Translations under genes and position numbers: made by a program | NCBI RefSeq assembly: GCF_056746865.1 | Contig: NZ_JBWKMP010000003.1 | Source: a plasmid | Length of the DNA: 64,000 nucleotides | Reading direction: 5' to 3' (one strand) | Shown here: positions 1 to 64,000 of the stretch, one piece after another | Position numbering within the stretch: position 1 is the first letter of the stretch | Layout of the letters: every line of letters begins with the position of its first letter | Notes under the pieces: model-generated | The model's database searches: none | Told to the model about the DNA's origin: nothing | Seen by the model: the letters and a program-made list of their open reading frames with translations, nothing else

Positions 1-99
1 AAGATAGAAGCTCAATTACGAAAGGAGCAGCGTCAGTTGGTGGCGATGACTAACCAGCTATGGAACGCCGCTGTGAAAAAACGTGAGGCTTCCCTATGA
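1..99 (+). CDS. 3' end of an upstream ORF truncated by the window start
   Basis: Frame open from base 1 to TGA at 97-99; the stop overlaps the next ATG as ATGA. Sits in the slot P1 uses for lpa, but there is no motif evidence. Confidence 0.3.
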   Translation, partial: KIEAQLRKEQRQLVAMTNQLWNAAVKKREASL

Positions 100-1460
100 C
101 GTTAATTAACTGGGAAGCGCATCGAGCTAAGTTCCTGGAGTTAAGAGAAGAAACCGGGATCACCATAAAAGAATATTGCGAGCAGCATGACCTCAGCTTT
201 AACACCGCCAGAAAGCATCTCAATATGAAAAAAAATGAGGTTAAGGCGAAAGCTAAGGCTACCGGGAAAAGTACAAAACAGCGCGCAAAAAGCAGCGCCA
301 CCGGCTCAAAAAAAGAGCAAAAAAAGGCTAATAAAAGCACAGAATTTACAAAAACTGACAAATCGTTGGCTGGTGGACGGTTCCGCGCCATGCCGCAAAA
401 ACAAAATGCGGATCACAAAGAAAAGCCAAGTAATAACAACAAGATACACAAGGATGTGAAGGGATCATTTTGTGATGAAATGGGAGAAATGATCCCTAAA
501 AGCAGCGATAAAGCCCAACGAAACAAGGGATCATTGCAAATGATCCCTGATTCATCAGCTCAAAGCACCACTTTGCCTGCCACCAACGTCGCCCGTGAGA
601 TGATGAAGAACGGCGCGACTGAACATTTACGACTTGCGATACAGATGGCGCAGGAACGAGCAATTCAGTATCAGGCTATCGTTGACCAGGAAGCGGAGCG
701 ACTACAGGAAGAGATTGACGCCCTCGGTGATACACAGCCAGAGGGGATGCACCCAGGGCAGCGTCTTCTCGGACTGATCAGCGATGCGGCCTACTACATG
801 AATGACTTTATCACCAGGCTGGCAGCCATCTATCAGAACGAGCAGAAGCTACGCCAGGGGGATGAAAAACTTGCGCAGGGCGCGCGTCAGCAGGCATTCA
901 GGGAGGCTGAGGCCAGAGAAAAACTGGCGATTGCCCGCCTACAAGCCGAGCAGCGTGGCAAGGAGATTGAGTATCGCATTGGCGCTGACGCACGCGCCGC
1001 CAGGGTTATCGCCGCCGCTATACGTATGCGTGAGCGCGAGGAGCTGGATGATATAGGTGTTGCTGAATATATCGAGCGGCAGGGCGTCAGTGTCCCGGCT
1101 ATCCTGGCGGCACGAGCGGCAAAAGCGATCTCACTTCTGGAGCCTCCGGTTTCTGACGTTAACGATGTTGATGATGAGCAACTGGATAAAGAGGCGAAGC
1201 AGTTTGCCGAGCAACAAGCTGGACTCCCACAATGGCTTGCACAACGCCGGGCTGAAGTAGCGAAAATCGTTGATAGGCTTGGGATGGGGGATTACGACCG
1301 GAACGGAGAACGTAAAGCCGGTGAATTTGAGGCCAATGATGAAGACCTGAATATAGACCCTTCCGCGACGGCTGATATCTACGGTGATTATGACGCGGGG
1401 GATACCGGTTTTGATGCTGTAGATGACGAGATTGCGATAGACCAGCCGGAGGATGACTAA
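96..1460 (+). CDS. pacA: terminase small subunit (PacA-like)
   Basis: ATG at 96 with GTGAGG Shine-Dalgarno; N-terminal HTH-like segment; stop overlaps the start of the large-subunit gene (TAATG); contains the GATC-rich repeat cluster. Confidence 0.6.
   Translation: MTLINWEAHRAKFLELREETGITIKEYCEQHDLSFNTARKHLNMKKNEVKAKAKATGKSTKQRAKSSATGSKKEQKKANKSTEFTKTDKSLAGGRFRAMPQKQNADHKEKPSNNNKIHKDVKGSFCDEMGEMIPKSSDKAQRNKGSLQMIPDSSAQSTTLPATNVAREMMKNGATEHLRLAIQMAQERAIQYQAIVDQEAERLQEEIDALGDTQPEGMHPGQRLLGLISDAAYYMNDFITRLAAIYQNEQKLRQGDEKLAQGARQQAFREAEAREKLAIARLQAEQRGKEIEYRIGADARAARVIAAAIRMREREELDDIGVAEYIERQGVSVPAILAARAAKAISLLEPPVSDVNDVDDEQLDKEAKQFAEQQAGLPQWLAQRRAEVAKIVDRLGMGDYDRNGERKAGEFEANDEDLNIDPSATADIYGDYDAGDTGFDAVDDEIAIDQPEDD
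461..547. other. candidate pac site: four GATC-containing 9-mers in inverted pairs
   Basis: GGGATCATT at 461-469 and 527-535; AATGATCCC at 488-496 and 539-547; each carries a Dam site; lies in the 5' part of the small-terminase gene, as P1 pac does. Confidence 0.4.
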
Positions 1461-2968
1461 TGGCTGGTGGTCGTAAGATTAAGTGCGTCACCAGTGATCC
1501 ACGTTGGCGCGATATGGTTATCAGGTATCGATACAACTTTACCCAGGCGGTTGTCGATATTTTTGGGATGTTCCCCTCCCACCAGCAGCAGCAGATCATT
1601 CAGTCAGTGCAGGAGACGGGGAGCAGGACGACCGTTACGTCCGGACACGGAACGGGTAAGTCGTCCCTTACCGCGATGTTGCTACTAATTTTTATGATCC
1701 TGTTCCCCGACGCCCGCGTCATTATTGTTGCGAACAAAATAGGCCAGGTAAAAACAGGCGTATTCAAATACGTGAAACAGTTTTGGGCGAATGCTGTTAA
1801 GCGCCACGGCTGGTTACAGACCTATTTTGTCCTGTCTGACACCATGTTTTATGAGCGTTCCCGTAAAGGGATATGGGAAGTGCTCTGTAAAGGTTATCGA
1901 CTCGGTAACGAAGAGGCACTGGCGGGGGAGCACGCGGAGCATTTACTGCTAATCCTTGATGAAGCATCGGGCATATCCGATAAGGCGATTAACGTCATGA
2001 CGGGGGCGTTAACGCAGAAAGATAACCGTATGCTCATGCTTTCCCAGCCTACGCGTCCAAGCGGTTACTTTTATGAATCTCACCATTCAAGGGCAAAGGC
2101 AGAAGGCAATCCGGAAGGTGTCTGGACGGCAATAGTCCTTAACTCTGAAGAATCACCATTCGTTGAACCGAGCTTTATTCGTGAGAAATTGCTGGAGTAC
2201 GGCGGCAGGGATTCGCTGGAGTACATGGTTAAGGTGCTGGGCCAGTTCCCGCGTGCAATTAACGGGTATTTGCTTGGTCGTGATGAGTGCGACCGCGCCG
2301 CACGGCGTAAAGTGTTGCTGGAGAAAGATTGGGGCTGGGTAGCGACCGCTGACGTCGGTAATGGTCGCGATAAATCGGTGCTCAATATATGCAAAGTATC
2401 CGGTTATCGTGAGAAACGACGCGTTGTGAACTTTAAGATACTGGAGATGCCAGGCACTATGGACCCGTTGGCTTTTGCCGACTTTATCTATAACGAATGC
2501 ACTCCTGATAAATACCCGAACATCACCATTGCTGTGGATGCTGATGGCTTTGGTTCAGATACGTGTGCGCAGCTTGTCCGCCGTGGTGCTAATCCCGTTC
2601 GCATCCGTTGGGGTAAGCCTATGTTTGCGCTAAGAGACAGAGAACGCTTTGTCAATCAGCGTGCTTACGCCAATATTATGGCAGGGGATGCCATTAAATC
2701 CGGGCGTATGCGTATCGATAGTGACCCCAAAACCGCAGATCAGGCATCAAAAATCCCGTATATGCTTAACGAAGAAGGGAAGGTAGCGATGATGCGCAAG
2801 GAGCACATGCGGCAGAAGTTAAACATCAAGTCACCGGACAGATGGGATACCTACTGCTTCACTATGCTGGTGGATTACGTGCCTGCTAATGAAGACATTG
2901 GCGCAGAACTCGCAACATTCCGCGATCAGGTGTTGGCAGAAGTGGATATTCCTGATATTGACATTTAA
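1460..2968 (+). CDS. pacB: terminase large subunit (PacB-like)
   Basis: Walker A (TSGHGTGKSS) and Walker B (LLILDEASGI) motifs; 502 aa; translationally coupled to pacA. Confidence 0.75.
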   Translation: MAGGRKIKCVTSDPRWRDMVIRYRYNFTQAVVDIFGMFPSHQQQQIIQSVQETGSRTTVTSGHGTGKSSLTAMLLLIFMILFPDARVIIVANKIGQVKTGVFKYVKQFWANAVKRHGWLQTYFVLSDTMFYERSRKGIWEVLCKGYRLGNEEALAGEHAEHLLLILDEASGISDKAINVMTGALTQKDNRMLMLSQPTRPSGYFYESHHSRAKAEGNPEGVWTAIVLNSEESPFVEPSFIREKLLEYGGRDSLEYMVKVLGQFPRAINGYLLGRDECDRAARRKVLLEKDWGWVATADVGNGRDKSVLNICKVSGYREKRRVVNFKILEMPGTMDPLAFADFIYNECTPDKYPNITIAVDADGFGSDTCAQLVRRGANPVRIRWGKPMFALRDRERFVNQRAYANIMAGDAIKSGRMRIDSDPKTADQASKIPYMLNEEGKVAMMRKEHMRQKLNIKSPDRWDTYCFTMLVDYVPANEDIGAELATFRDQVLAEVDIPDIDI

Positions 2969-37533: not shown

Positions 37534-38285
37534 TATTGGTGCTAAATTTATTTCTTATAGCGACAATCATCGTCCTGCGGCGGAAGCCACTATCAGCCAT
37601 ATGCGACGTATTCGCTCGGAGGACGAATTTGATCGCCCAGTCTTTAAGTGGGTCGGCGGCAAATTTTCTGCACTGCCCATTATCTTCGAACACCTGCCCC
37701 ACGGAAAACGGTTGATAGAACCTTTCGTTGGAGGTGGCGCTGTTTTCACTAATGCCGGATTTAAAAGCAACCTGCTGAACGATATCAATAATGACCTGAT
37801 TAACTTCTATCAGACATTGCAGCGTGAAGGGCATTCTCTTATCACACTGGCATATCGTTTTTTTCAGGATTACAACTCTGCTGATGCATTTTTGAATGTT
37901 CGCAATGCATTCAACAATGGTGCTTATGATTCCCTTCACCATGCAGCGGCGTTCCTGTATCTCAATCGTCATTGTTTTAATGGCGTCACTCGCTATAACC
38001 GTAAAGGAGAGTTCAACGTCGGATATGGAAAGCAGAAATCACCCCACTTCCCTCTCGCGGAAATGGAGGCGTTCCTGGCTGACGATATTTCAAAGTATTC
38101 GGAATTTGTGTCCGGCGATTTTGCTGGTGTAATTGAGGCTGCCGGGAATGATGATGTGATTTTCTGCGATCCCCCCTATGAACCATTGCCTGACACTACC
38201 GGATTTACAAATTACTCAGGGCATAGCTTTAGGTTTGAAGATCAACAACGGCTGGTGTCACTGCTGGTGGATGCTGGATTTGCCC

Positions 38286-39191
38286 CTATATTTCCAGACA
38301 CCTGTTATCACTTAACCCATTACTGGCCCGCTGCCGTAGATATTCCCGTGGCGAGCGATAACCCAGTGCACTATGCGGATGCCATTCGTTATAATGCTCG
38401 AACGCCTCTGCAAGGTTCTTTGCTGCCGTTAACCCGTCTGGTTTAGGCATGATACTGATGTAGTCACGCTTTATCGTTTTCACGAAGCTCTCTGCTATGC
38501 CGTTACTCTCCGGACTCCGCACCGCCGTGTTCTTCGGTTCAAGCCCCAACATCCGGGCAAACTGCCGTGTTTCATTAGCCCGGTAGCATGAACCATTATC
38601 CGTCAGCCACTCTACTGGAGACGCCGGAAGCTCGTTGCCGAAGCGGCGTTCCACCGCTCCCAGCATTACGTCCTGTACTGTTTCACTGTCGAAGCCGCCC
38701 GTAGTGACTGCCCAGTGCAGTGCCTCACGGTCACAGCAGTCCAGCGCGAACGTGACTCGCAGTTTTTCTCCGTTATCACAGCGGAACTCGAACCCGTCAG
38801 AGCACCATCGTTGATTGCTTTCTTTCACGGCCACTTTGCCAGTATGTGCCCGTTTCGATGGCGGTACAGCGGTTTTTCGCTCAAGCAACAGCGCATTCTG
38901 GCGCATGATCCGGTAAACACGTTTGGCATTGATCGCAGGCATACCATCAAGTTCGGCCTGTCTGCGAAGCAGCGCCCATACCCGACGATAACCATACGTG
39001 GGCAGCTCTCCGATAACATGGTGTATACGGAGAAGCACATCCGTATCATCTGAGTGACGGCTGCGGCGACCATCTTTCCAGTCATCGGTTCGTCTGAGAA
39101 TGACGTGCAACTGCGCACGCGACACCCGGAGACAACGGCTGACTAAGCTTACTCCCCATCCCCGGGCAATAAGGGCGCGTGCGCTATCCAC
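38286..39191 (-). CDS. insD: IS2 transposase InsD (orfB)
   Basis: 301 aa, very close to IS2 InsD as recalled ([38 protein letters not shown]..). Confidence 0.9.
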
Positions 39192-39514
39192 TTTTTTGCA
39201 CGCCCGTATTCAACGGCTTCTTTAAGGAGTTCATTTTCCATCGTTTTTTTGCCGAGCAGGCGCTGGAGTTCTTTAATCTGCTTCATGGCAGCAGCAAGTT
39301 CAGAGGCAGGAACGACCTGCTCTCCTGCGGCCACAGCAGTAAGACTTCCCTCCTGGTATTGCTTGCGCCAGAGAAATAACTGGCTGGCTGCCACACCGTG
39401 TTGCCGGGCAACAAGGGAGACCGTCATTCCCGGTTCAAAACTCTGCTGAACAATAGCGATCTTTTCCTGTGTAGTACGCCGTCTGCGTTTCTCCGGTCCT
39501 AAGACATCAATCAT
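39149..39514 (-). CDS. insC: IS2 InsC (orfA)
   Basis: [26 protein letters not shown]..; start at the internal ATG of the track ORF. Confidence 0.85.
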
Positions 39515-39780
39515 CTGCTCTCCAATGACTAGTCTAAAAACTAGTATTAAGACTATCACTTATTTAAGTGATATTGGTTGTCTGGAGATTCAGGGGGCCA
39601 GTCTAGATGCCCACAGACGCGGAGCGAAAATTGTGATAACAAACAGTGGTGCGCCTAACATTCGCGAACTTTACGTTGGCAATGGCTTCAAGGTGTATCC
39701 TATGCCATCCCGTCGCTCTGTATCCTGTAAAGCATCAACGCGAATGATAGCTAACGACATTATAGCCACACTTAATTAAG

Positions 39781-52619: not shown

Positions 52620-52910
52620 TGAGGGCAATATCTACACCTGCTGTTTACGTCAATGATGGCATTTTTTACACATCACAACAAAATCAACGCGTTACAACCA
52701 TAAAACATTCAACAGTAGTGCGATAAAAATAGCTATAGCATACGATGCCATCTGAGGGTGATTTTTACACATTCCTTATTAATCAATAAATTACAAATAA
52801 TGTTAGCCGTTAAAGATCCAACCAACTAACTAATGATGTAAGAATTGCCCTCAATCTCCCATCTTTAAGGGCAAATCCTACACCTACAGAGAGGTGTAGA
52901 AATTGCCCTT
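52620..52910. repeat. incA-like iteron cluster downstream of repA
   Basis: About five ~21-bp copies in both orientations, for example TTGAGGGCAATATCTACACCT (52620) and TAAGGGCAAATCCTACACCT (52868). Confidence 0.5.
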
Positions 52911-53664
52911 AAGACTGCTGATAGGTGAATTTTATTTTTGTAACTCTGCCACCTTCTGTAACCTCTGAGAAAACTATTTTCATTTTTGTGTTTTTTTCGA
53001 TTTCAGCTACAGCTTTTGCCAGAAAGCTTCTCTTAAATTCGGCGTACCGTTGATAGCTTTTGGGAAGACCATAACGCTCCCGCATCCATTCAACGCCAAG
53101 TATAGCGAAGCCGCTCCCATCATCCTTTCTATACTGGCATAAGGACTCATAAAGCCGCATAGAATAAGGGTTTGTCAGGCGAGACACTTCAGTAAAATTC
53201 AGCCTCGTGAACCTCTTATCAAGCAGAGTAAAAAACGGCATGAGATATGGATTCAGATGAATAATGTAAGTCCCCCGGCGTGGTGAGTAAGCCTCCTTAA
53301 TCATCCAGGGATAAGACTCATAACTGTCTTCTGATTCGGTTGATTCATCAGGGTTATATATCGTGACTTTCTTCTCACTAAGTCCGGAGATAGCTTTACG
53401 AATATCCTTGCTGGCTTCAGCAGAGGGCAAATTATACATCTCTGCATATTCGTTGACCGTCAACTCACAGGCACCTGAACCAAGAACGCCATCCTTAGAA
53501 GCATAGCGAAGTCTTCCCACCACAATAAACAACAGTCGCTTTTGGTCGCGTGTCAGGTGATAAGCCGCCTCTGTGATCTCATTGGCCTGCGCCAAGCTAC
53601 GGCTAATTGGTGTCGCTGATTCAATCAGACTGACGGCTTTTGCCGTTAATTCCGCTCTGTTCAT
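52909..53664 (-). CDS. repA: RepA-type plasmid replication initiator (start uncertain)
   Basis: Call is contextual: no sequence motif was checked; sits between two iteron clusters with a DnaA box and AT-rich tract upstream. About 250 aa from ATG 53664. Confidence 0.55.
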   Translation of the reverse strand: MNRAELTAKAVSLIESATPISRSLAQANEITEAAYHLTRDQKRLLFIVVGRLRYASKDGVLGSGACELTVNEYAEMYNLPSAEASKDIRKAISGLSEKKVTIYNPDESTESEDSYESYPWMIKEAYSPRRGTYIIHLNPYLMPFFTLLDKRFTRLNFTEVSRLTNPYSMRLYESLCQYRKDDGSGFAILGVEWMRERYGLPKSYQRYAEFKRSFLAKAVAEIEKNTKMKIVFSEVTEGGRVTKIKFTYQQS

Positions 53665-53688: not shown

Positions 53689-53807
53689 TGAGGGCAATTT
53701 TTACATCACTTTGAGGGCAATTACTACACCTTTTGAGGGCAAATCTTACACCTGCTGAGGGCAAATCTTACACCTCAATAGCTTAATTGAGGGCAAATCT
53801 TACACCT
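53689..53807. repeat. origin iterons (incC-like): five direct ~21-bp repeats
   Basis: TGAGGGCAA(A/T)T(C/T)TTACACCT at about 53689, 53711, 53733, 53755 and 53787. Confidence 0.55.
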
Positions 53808-62014: not shown

Positions 62015-64000
62015 ATGTGCGCAGATAAAGTAAAGAACATTGTCACCTTATCTTCGGACATTTCCGCTCCACTAATTGCAGACATGCAATACTTTGAGCT
62101 GTATAGCACCGAAGCTCTAAACAGGAAGATGAAAAATATCGTTCTGCCCGGTGTGTACTGTGGGTTTGAACCGGTGCCAGGGGATGGCCTGTTTGTGCGG
62201 ATTACATCCGAGAAAACAGAGGGAAGAGGGGCGGCTTCAGTTGACGTGGGTAAATGTCAGATATCCGTGCAGCAAGTCAGTGATGTTGTTGTTCCTGTAG
62301 AAGCAGGTGTAACGACAATCATCGTTCTTGAAGCTAATTACGAACATGGAGTGAAAACCAGCCAGGTAGATAGTTCATCGGATATTAGCGCAGCGAGAAT
62401 TATAGCTCTCGTTGATGAGGGCATAGCATCTAACCAGATTGAGCTATGCCGAGTGATCGTGCCTGACAATGCTCAAGCCGTTACCGCAGATATGATTAGC
62501 ACTAAATATCGCGCTAATCGTGCTGTAGGTGTTGAGTTCTCCAGTGCTTTGGATAGTGACGAAGAATATAAAGCTGCAACCCCCCTTGCTATCAGCACGT
62601 TAAATAAACTTAAAGCTCCGGTTGATAGCCCGGAATTTATAGGTATCCCTACATCTCCAACTCCGGAACAAGGTACAAACAGTACACAAATCGCAAACGC
62701 TGCCTTTGTTCAGGCCGCTATAACCGCACTTATTGATGGTTCTCCTTCAGCGTTGGATACGCTGAAAAAAATTGCAGATGCAATAAACAATGATCCCCAG
62801 TTTAGCCAGACGATTAATGATGCTTTAGCTCTTAAAGCGCCGTTATTAAGCCCGGCATTTACGGGGGTTCCAACAGCTCCTACGGCGTCACAAGGTACGA
62901 ACAACACTCAGATTGCAACAACCGCTTATGTTCGTGCCGCTATTTCTGCATTGGTCGGCTCATCACCAGAAGCTCTTGATACTCTTAATGAGCTTGCTGC
63001 GGCGCTGGGCAATGACCCGAACTTTGCGACTACAATGACAAATGCCCTGGCAGGTAAGCAGCCTCTCGACGCAACCTTAACCGCGCTCGCTGGCCTGGCG
63101 ACGGGGGCAAATAAATTACCGTACTTTACCGGAACAGACACTGTAGCCCAGACTGATTTAACGTCAGTCGGTCGCGATATTCTTGCTAAAACAAGCACAC
63201 TGGCTGTTATCCAATACCTTGGTTTAAGAGAACTCGGAACCAGCGGAGAAAAGCTCCCCCTGTTGAGCACAGCTAATACCTGGAGTGCACGCCAGACTTT
63301 CAGCGCGGGGATCACTGGTACGCTGACCGGGAACGCCGATACTGCGACGAAATTAAAAACAGCCAGAAAGATTAACGGTGTGGCATTTGATGGGTCGGCA
63401 GATATTACTCTGACCCCTGAAGATCTTGGCTTAACGGATATTGCTTCTCAAGCTGGTAACGCAGTTCAGCGTTCTGGCGACACAATGGGGGGGCAGCTAA
63501 AAATTGGCACAATAAATGCCCTTCGAATATTTAACCAGGACTTTGGCCTTATCTTCAGGAGATCCGAGGAATATCTTCATCTTATCCCGACAAATGAAGG
63601 GGAGGGTGAAAATGGTGACATCGGGCCATTAAGACCATTTTCTATAAACTTAAGAACTGGGTTGGTGTCCATCGGTAACGGCGTAAAAGTTGGCGGTGGT
63701 ATTACTGGTAATTTGACGGGAAACGCAGATACTGCCACAAAGCTCAAGACAGCTCGAACGATCGGCGGAGTGTCATTTGATGGCAGCGCCAATATCGACC
63801 TGCCTGGCGTGAATAAAACAGGTAATCAGAGCACTACCGGCAATGCTGCAACCGCAACGAAACTTCAGACGGCACGCACAATCGGCGGAGTGTCATTTGA
63901 TGGCAGCGCCAATATCGACCTGCCTGGCGTGAATAAAACAGGTAATCAGAGCACTACCGGCAATGCTGCAACCGCAACGAAACTTCAGACGGCACGCACA
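62015..64000 (+). CDS. tail fibre protein (3'-truncated by window end)
   Basis: ATG with GAGGG Shine-Dalgarno; open for 662 codons to the window edge; repeated tail-fibre motifs (SPxFTGxPTAPTAxQGTNNTQIA, GxLTGNADTATKLKTAR..GVxFDGSA). Confidence 0.7.
   Translation, partial: MCADKVKNIVTLSSDISAPLIADMQYFELYSTEALNRKMKNIVLPGVYCGFEPVPGDGLFVRITSEKTEGRGAASVDVGKCQISVQQVSDVVVPVEAGVTTIIVLEANYEHGVKTSQVDSSSDISAARIIALVDEGIASNQIELCRVIVPDNAQAVTADMISTKYRANRAVGVEFSSALDSDEEYKAATPLAISTLNKLKAPVDSPEFIGIPTSPTPEQGTNSTQIANAAFVQAAITALIDGSPSALDTLKKIADAINNDPQFSQTINDALALKAPLLSPAFTGVPTAPTASQGTNNTQIATTAYVRAAISALVGSSPEALDTLNELAAALGNDPNFATTMTNALAGKQPLDATLTALAGLATGANKLPYFTGTDTVAQTDLTSVGRDILAKTSTLAVIQYLGLRELGTSGEKLPLLSTANTWSARQTFSAGITGTLTGNADTATKLKTARKINGVAFDGSADITLTPEDLGLTDIASQAGNAVQRSGDTMGGQLKIGTINALRIFNQDFGLIFRRSEEYLHLIPTNEGEGENGDIGPLRPFSINLRTGLVSIGNGVKVGGGITGNLTGNADTATKLKTARTIGGVSFDGSANIDLPGVNKTGNQSTTGNAATATKLQTARTIGGVSFDGSANIDLPGVNKTGNQSTTGNAATATKLQTART
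63761..64000 (+). repeat. 120-bp tandem repeat within the tail-fibre gene
   Basis: 63761-63880 is repeated identically at 63881-64000 (ATCGGCGGAGTGTCATTTGATGGCAGCGCC...), encoding a 40-aa unit. Confidence 0.8.

Follow-up and report, generated by a model that had tools for sequence, protein, structure and literature searches.

The start of a plasmid-borne stretch of 64,000 nucleotides (hereafter the window, with positions counted from its first letter) contains a cluster of short, Dam site-bearing repeats inside a gene for DNA packaging, raising the question of whether this cluster is the pac site at which the element begins to package its DNA. A sequence-only reading of the window had proposed this by likeness to P1.

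Because of its DNA, PacA and PacB identities to D6, we assign the window element to the D6-like phage-plasmids, in a clade that these comparisons separate from D6 itself. Its DNA shares ~80% identity with phage D6 across pacA-pacB, its PacA is 74% identical to D6 PacA vs. 24% to P1 PacA, and the corresponding values for PacB are 92% and 56%. Seven Escherichia plasmids of ~90 kb are at least 98% identical to the window and carry the ORF at 96–1460 under the label 'DNA pacase A subunit'; among 5,426 complete E. coli genomes, the clade was found in 16 and was plasmid-borne every time. The relevant genes of the first 5.5 kb are the following:

within the first 5.5 kb: end of an lpa-like gene
96–1460, plus strand: pacA homologue (small terminase or pacase A subunit, 454 aa; PHROG 1711 'terminase', E 2e-167)
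1460–2968, plus strand: pacB homologue (large terminase or pacase B subunit, 502 aa; large-terminase PHROGs)
within the first 5.5 kb, minus strand: c1-like repressor
within the first 5.5 kb: Dre-like tyrosine recombinase, 342 aa

The repeats had been said to lie inside the small-terminase gene, and the ORF that contains them does encode a PacA homologue (PHROG 1711, 74% identical to D6 PacA). In this protein, an N-terminal HTH is followed by a variable Lys-rich linker (~codons 45–165) and then by a conserved C-terminal part.

Within the pacA ORF (96–1460), GGGATCATT is present on the plus strand at 461–469 and 527–535 and its complement AATGATCCC at 488–496 and 539–547. Each of the four copies contains GATC, in agreement with the original description of a 9-mer and its complement occurring twice each within 87 bp with a Dam site in every copy. 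The copies form two convergent pairs, the first with 10-bp arms (GGGATCATTT ... AAATGATCCC) and 16 bp between them, the second a perfect 21-bp palindrome with a 3-bp centre. Because a fifth Dam hexamer, overlooked earlier, and an IHF-like 13-mer belong to the same unit, this unit is larger than 461–547 and extends from ~409 to 547. The resulting candidate site of ~139 bp corresponds to pacA nt 314–452 of 1,365 and is composed as follows:

409–415, minus strand: H1, CGGATCA (TGATCC on the minus strand), a 7-nt run that is invariant in three clades and present at pacA nt 316 in 26 of 26 unique D6-group sequences
434–446, plus strand: IHF-like 13-mer TAACAACAAGATA, with two mismatches to WATCAANNNNTTR
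461–470, minus strand: H2, GGGATCATTT (AAATGATCCC on the minus strand), left arm of the first convergent pair, with GATCATT invariant
487–496, plus strand: H3, AAATGATCCC, right arm of the first pair, a 10-nt invariant run among the longest of the linker
527–535, minus strand: H4, GGGATCATT, left arm of the second pair, with GATC invariant
539–547, plus strand: H5, AATGATCCC, right arm of the second pair, a 9-nt invariant run

The five elements are arranged as 1 + 2 + 2, with gaps of 46, 18, 31 and 3 bp, GATC offsets at pacA nt 316, 368, 396, 434 and 447, and spacings of 52, 28, 38 and 13 bp between adjacent GATCs. Measured from centre to centre, H2 and H3 are 28 bp apart, a spacing that is kept in the Enterobacter clade, and H4 and H5 are 13 bp apart. 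All five elements read TGATC on one strand with C as the sixth base (TGATCC), and neither TGATCA nor TGATCG occurs in the array. No distal hexamer cluster was found between pacA nt 64 and 315. On the minus strand at 156–162, where pacA encodes the HTH (codons G-I-T), GGGATCA is present in 26 of 26 unique D6-group sequences and absent in the Enterobacter and Pantoea clades; it may be a distal sixth pac element or merely conserved coding sequence, and its conservation is uninformative because it lies inside a conserved coding stretch.

We compared the cluster with dinucleotide-preserving shuffles of the window. In 0 of 300 shuffles did any 9-mer, in either orientation, occur four non-overlapping times within 87 bp. 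When overlapping copies were allowed, 16 of 200 shuffles were positive, a number inflated by low-complexity k-mers, and the non-overlapping count was used instead. The 9-mer itself occurs five times in the 64-kb window vs. 0.54 expected; the fifth copy, AATGATCCC on the plus strand at 62789–62797, stands without partner copies in a long ORF running off the window end and is probably due to chance. The sole other 9-mer cluster of this kind in the real window is an iteron array, which together with an adjoining initiator gene constitutes the plasmid replication origin:

52909–53664, minus strand: RepE-like initiator gene
53689–53806: five direct iterons, TGAGGGCAAATCTTACAC-like, with a period of ~22 bp

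The repeat array is also the densest GATC cluster of the window. Over 64 kb, GATC density alone is not significant (four GATC within 90 bp were reached in 94 of 200 shuffles, five within 140 bp in 49 of 200), which would suit a chance grouping of short, functionless repeats. Such a grouping has next to no probability in our view and is effectively refuted by the 9-mer shuffles, by the cross-clade conservation of the sites (P 2 × 10−7) and by a family-wide GATC enrichment, the latter two being described below. The signal comes from the repetition of an extended motif, from where it lies and from its conservation, not from GATC density.

To these counts we added a three-clade alignment of the PacA linker (pacA nt 133–495, without indels) comprising the window, D6 and an S. 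dysenteriae plasmid (L014). The linker DNA is ~60% identical between pairs (~61% for the window and D6), and 174 of 363 columns (48%) are invariant in all three. The five GATCs contribute 20 bases, every one of them invariant (hypergeometric P about 2 × 10−7), and four of the nine invariant linker runs of at least 5 nt are GATC elements, namely CGGATCA, GATCATT, AAATGATCCC and AATGATCCC. Conservation in relatives, on which the proposal depended, was thus observed as five GATC sites at identical pacA offsets in three D6-group clades. All five sites are intact in 24 of 26 unique D6-group sequences, the two exceptions being single GATC-to-GACC changes. What is conserved is the unit RGATCW/TGATCC, a GATC core flanked by T or A, and not the whole 9-mer: the flanks of H4 differ between clades (GGATCT in D6, AGATCA in S. 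dysenteriae), and because the D6 9-mers are degenerate (AGATCATT, GGATCTTC), the perfect fourfold 9-mer is particular to the clade of the window.

Two further observations concern the same linker. The invariant islands AATTTACA and TGACAA at 343–361, within its variable part, code for a conserved FT.xD peptide, and no promoter-like −10 element was seen downstream of them. In IMG isolate genome 2537562191, two contigs (end of L052, start of L042) break in a D6-type pacA at nt 320–329 with a 10-bp overlap, directly after the first Dam hexamer; as a single draft-assembly break, this was discounted as evidence of a physical DNA end.

Conserved repeats in a coding region could reflect selection on the protein, in this case on the PacA peptide KGS[FL]...MIP, with the DNA motif as a by-product lacking any cis function. 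The repeats do encode a repeated peptide (KGSF...EMIP and KGSL...QMIP), as had been noticed from the sequence, and each of the three clades has two conserved copies of MIP. The two orientations of the motif are reverse complements, however, and encode unrelated peptides in different frames: the same element is read as D-H, as G/R-S (GS, frame 1) and as M-I-P (frame 2), covering three reading frames. At two sites, Gly and Arg are exchanged (GGA/AGA) with the GA of GATC retained. The surrounding linker protein is hypervariable, and other clades keep GATC arrays that encode quite different peptides, such as GDH/NDH repeats. The wobble bases within the GATC cores are invariant in 5 of 5 cases, most adjoining wobble bases vary, and a whole-codon synonymous test was not significant (4 of 8 inside vs. 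10 of 22 outside, P 0.57). Selection on the protein would not be expected to place one 9-mer in either direction and in more than one frame; from this and from the alignment we conclude that selection acts on the DNA of the array, and we give the peptide explanation very little weight.

The inverted arrangement could alternatively form an mRNA hairpin or a DNA cruciform that controls pacA/pacB translation or serves as a structural signal. In the window, the arms are perfect over 10 bp and 9 bp, and the RNA fold of 440–570 has a z-score of −3.35; part of this pairing comes free, however, because GATC is self-complementary. In a six-sequence alignment, compensatory changes were seen in 0 of 19 arm pairs, departures in the D6 clade always break a pair on one side only, and H1 has no partner. 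Given one-sided breaks only, without covariation, the hairpin or cruciform was dropped as a highly improbable explanation.

Because tblastn of PacA against the phage collection matched D6 only and missed P1, we located relatives through PacB (plasmids and phages) and through a PacA alignment (IMG/VR), resulting in 66 unique loci. Across these 66 PacA-family loci, pacA nt 130–500 contain 447 GATC vs. 88.9 expected from the flanks, with a minimum of four per locus, and 95% of the linker GATCs are in a TGATC/GATCA context vs. 53% outside this region. Clusters of TGATC-type Dam hexamers were present in the same part of pacA in every PacA-family clade examined, P1 included, with the following layouts:

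P1: 4+3(+1)
Pantoea: six or seven TGATCA with an exact 12-bp period, plus two distal
Citrobacter: 6+2
Enterobacter: 3+5, three at a 12-bp period and five including a D6-type GGATCA-N22-TGATCC pair
D6 group: 1+4, without a distal cluster

The survey identifies Dam-site arrays inside pacA as a hallmark of the whole P1 superfamily, with layouts that are clade-specific. P1-related phage-plasmids of Pantoea, Enterobacter and Citrobacter (e.g., pPSP-26e, pJBIWA008_2 and pRHBSTW-00697_3) share the GATC-hexamer arrays in the pacA linker with the D6 group, and the Enterobacter clade also shares the D6-type pair and the IHF-like element. The periodic distal cluster, in contrast, is missing in the D6 group. 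By this clade-by-clade comparison, the D6-type site is identified as a derived, compact layout, and the Enterobacter clade is seen to join a 12-bp-period cluster of the P1/Pantoea type with a D6-type cluster.

In Pantoea pPSP-26e (L004, 1319–1385) and IMG/VR loci L054–L073, the 12-bp-period TGATCA array encodes a (G/S/N/H)DH/DQ repeat (GDQSGDHNHDHSGDHASDHQNDH); in this Pantoea-type array, a DNA signal clearly imposes a repeat on the peptide. A Vibrio alginolyticus plasmid has a distant gene in the pacA position with two groups of three GATC each, ~120 bp apart (L006, 1451–1650), and the two-cluster layout may therefore reach Vibrio P1-like plasmids. Remoter pacB-linked genes of Aeromonas, V. 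vulnificus and Pseudomonas showed no clear array; their annotated starts are doubtful, and they were left out of the counts.

The known reference for such an array is the pac site of P1, reportedly the subject of work by Sternberg and Coulby (1987–1990) and Skorupski et al. (1994). In the P1 record (NC_005856), four TGATCA hexamers are located at pacA nt 195–234 and three TGATCA/G hexamers at nt 325–353, and the IHF site and the primary cleavage points are annotated in pacA between these clusters. P1 pac spans 161 bp, within which lie seven TGATCA/G Dam hexamers (HEX4 and HEX3) and an IHF site, the cut being central; its cleavage needs PacA, PacB, IHF and HU and is controlled by methylation, and synonymous recoding of the hexamers lowered packaging ~9-fold (PMC10028697).

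The likeness to P1 pac proved real in that the experimentally mapped P1 site is also a Dam-hexamer cluster in the same region of pacA. According to protein alignments, both arrays fall within the 5′ third of pacA, in the Lys-rich, variable linker that comes right after the HTH. Clustered Dam-site elements with a TGATC core, a similar size (~139 bp here, ~160 bp in P1), an IHF-type 13-mer (a candidate site here) with the same AACA-core deviation, cognate PacA/PacB, a Dam-family methylase gene and the order lpa-pacA-pacB-c1-recombinase are likewise shared. The two sites differ in the sixth base, which is A or G in P1 (TGATCA being palindromic) and C here (TGATCC, asymmetric), and in the number and arrangement of elements, with seven as 4+3 in P1 and five here as one single element and two convergent pairs (1+4). 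In the clade of the window, the elements extend to 9–11 bp (AATGATCCCT) and are read in three frames, whereas those of P1 are mostly in frame 0 (Asp-His/Gln), and the PacA proteins are only 24% identical. The ~90-bp central cleavage region between the P1 clusters is missing here, leaving no obvious place for the cut. The earlier proposal is supported, in that a conserved Dam cluster occupies the location of P1 pac, with the qualifications that the whole 9-mer is not the conserved unit, that the unit is larger than 461–547 and that the architecture of P1 is not matched.

The comparison with D6 and D6-like plasmid prophages (AY753669, MF356679; reportedly described by Gilcrease and Casjens, 2018) revealed the same five GATC sites at identical pacA offsets; the IHF-like element and the order of genes also agree. 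The linker DNA of D6 is only ~61% identical, and its 9-mers are degenerate. No pac feature is annotated in the D6 GenBank records, and the literature searched, which did not include the D6 genome paper, contained no description of a D6 pac or mapping of D6 virion ends.

The IHF-like 13-mer TAACAACAAGATA has the AACA core in common with the annotated IHF site of P1 pac, AAACAAAGAGTTA, and within it ATAACA (433–438) forms an invariant island. Of the matches with at most two mismatches, it is the only one at the same aligned place in four clades, those of the window, D6, S. dysenteriae and Enterobacter, and all four have the AACA core; about one match with two mismatches is expected by chance in such a region. 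These features suggest 434–446 as a candidate IHF site, on evidence that is weak when taken alone. H1 and H2 are ~27 and ~24 bp from the centre of the 13-mer, distances at which an IHF-type bend could bring the two elements together.

A source of GATC methylation is available in host Dam and/or in a Dam-family gene of the element itself, which is broken by IS2 in the window and intact in D6:

37601–38446, plus strand: ORF for a Dam-family DNA adenine methyltransferase (TIGR00571, 206 bits vs. a cutoff of 115)
38266–39606, minus strand, ends approximate: IS2 insertion (IS2 TnpB, 508 bits; 95–99.6% identity to IS2 copies over query 1467–2807)

The TIGR00571 match spans only profile positions 2–212 of 267, and the gene is broken by IS2 after ~codon 222; the D6 orthologue, orf63, is intact with 301 aa. 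In D6, a glnS-like gene adjoins orf63 and is seemingly missing in the window. Because its own dam gene is interrupted by IS2, methylation of the array in this copy would depend on host Dam. The hosts, E. coli and other Escherichia, are Dam+.

A conserved cluster of Dam sites is also what would be expected of a regulatory element that senses Dam and SeqA, acting on pacA/pacB timing or on the sequestration of new DNA, with pac located elsewhere. The cluster does consist of Dam sites conserved at the DNA level, and P1-family plasmids use GATC clusters elsewhere, e.g., in origins. SeqA clusters, however, are made of GATC pairs on the same helical face, spaced near multiples of 10.5 bp and at most ~31 bp apart, in a promoter or origin. 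The adjacent spacings of 52, 28, 38 and 13 bp are not helically phased for cooperative SeqA binding, and the array lies within a coding region in which no promoter-like features were seen. It sits, moreover, where the mapped pac of P1 lies, and recoding the hexamers of P1 lowers packaging (PMC10028697). We therefore regard the regulatory explanation as unlikely.

Because the repeat is not due to chance, selection acts at the DNA level, the location is that of P1 pac, GATC is enriched across the family and Dam-family genes are available, we consider it probable, as a prediction by homology, that 409–547 is the pac site of a D6-like phage-plasmid, a P1-type pac in rearranged form. The four 9-mer repeats are most likely its core.

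If 409–547 is pac, the PacA/PacB pacase would make the first cut in the replicated concatemer at this site, inside its own pacA gene, and thereby start headful packaging. That PacA and IHF bind here, that cleavage depends on Dam, where the cut falls and which way packaging runs are all inferred by analogy with P1. PacA would bind through its N-terminal HTH to the five Dam-methylatable TGATCC-type elements, i.e., H1 and the pairs at 461–496 and 527–547, while host IHF may bind the 13-mer at 434–446, and the bend would bring the elements together in a single nucleoprotein complex. PacB would then cut within or beside the array, and packaging would run towards the region of pacB, c1 and rox/Dre. 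Two more precise positions for the cut, one 8–17 bp past the IHF site by analogy with P1 (~454–463) and one in the 31-bp gap at 497–526, were not favoured, and neither region is conserved. Whether a bound site is cut would depend, as in P1, on how its GATCs are methylated (fully, hemi or not at all), and this gating would confine cutting to a small number of pac copies in each concatemer.

The mechanism itself would not be new; the sequence and geometry of the elements are what differ in the D6 group. If the assignment is true, the packaging start is located for the D6-like phage-plasmids, a common kind of 90-kb plasmid in E. coli, Salmonella and Shigella. One could then design phagemids or transducing particles based on D6 and orthogonal to P1, predict which sequences of chromosomes or plasmids are wrongly packaged during generalized transduction, and disable self-packaging by synonymous recoding, as already done for P1.

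We also put forward, tentatively and with more doubt than confidence, that the D6 lineage rebuilt its pac: symmetric TGATCA arrays would have given way to asymmetric convergent pairs of 9–11 bp (AATGATCCC), the distal cluster would have been lost and the PacA HTH would have diverged, such that P1-type and D6-type pacases no longer recognise each other's pac. Were this the case, phage-plasmids sharing E. coli hosts would possess naturally orthogonal, Dam-gated packaging systems, and the Enterobacter clade, in which both types of cluster occur, would represent an intermediate in evolution. The array would then also provide a clear example of a cis-acting DNA signal that dictates peptide repeats in the very protein that reads it.
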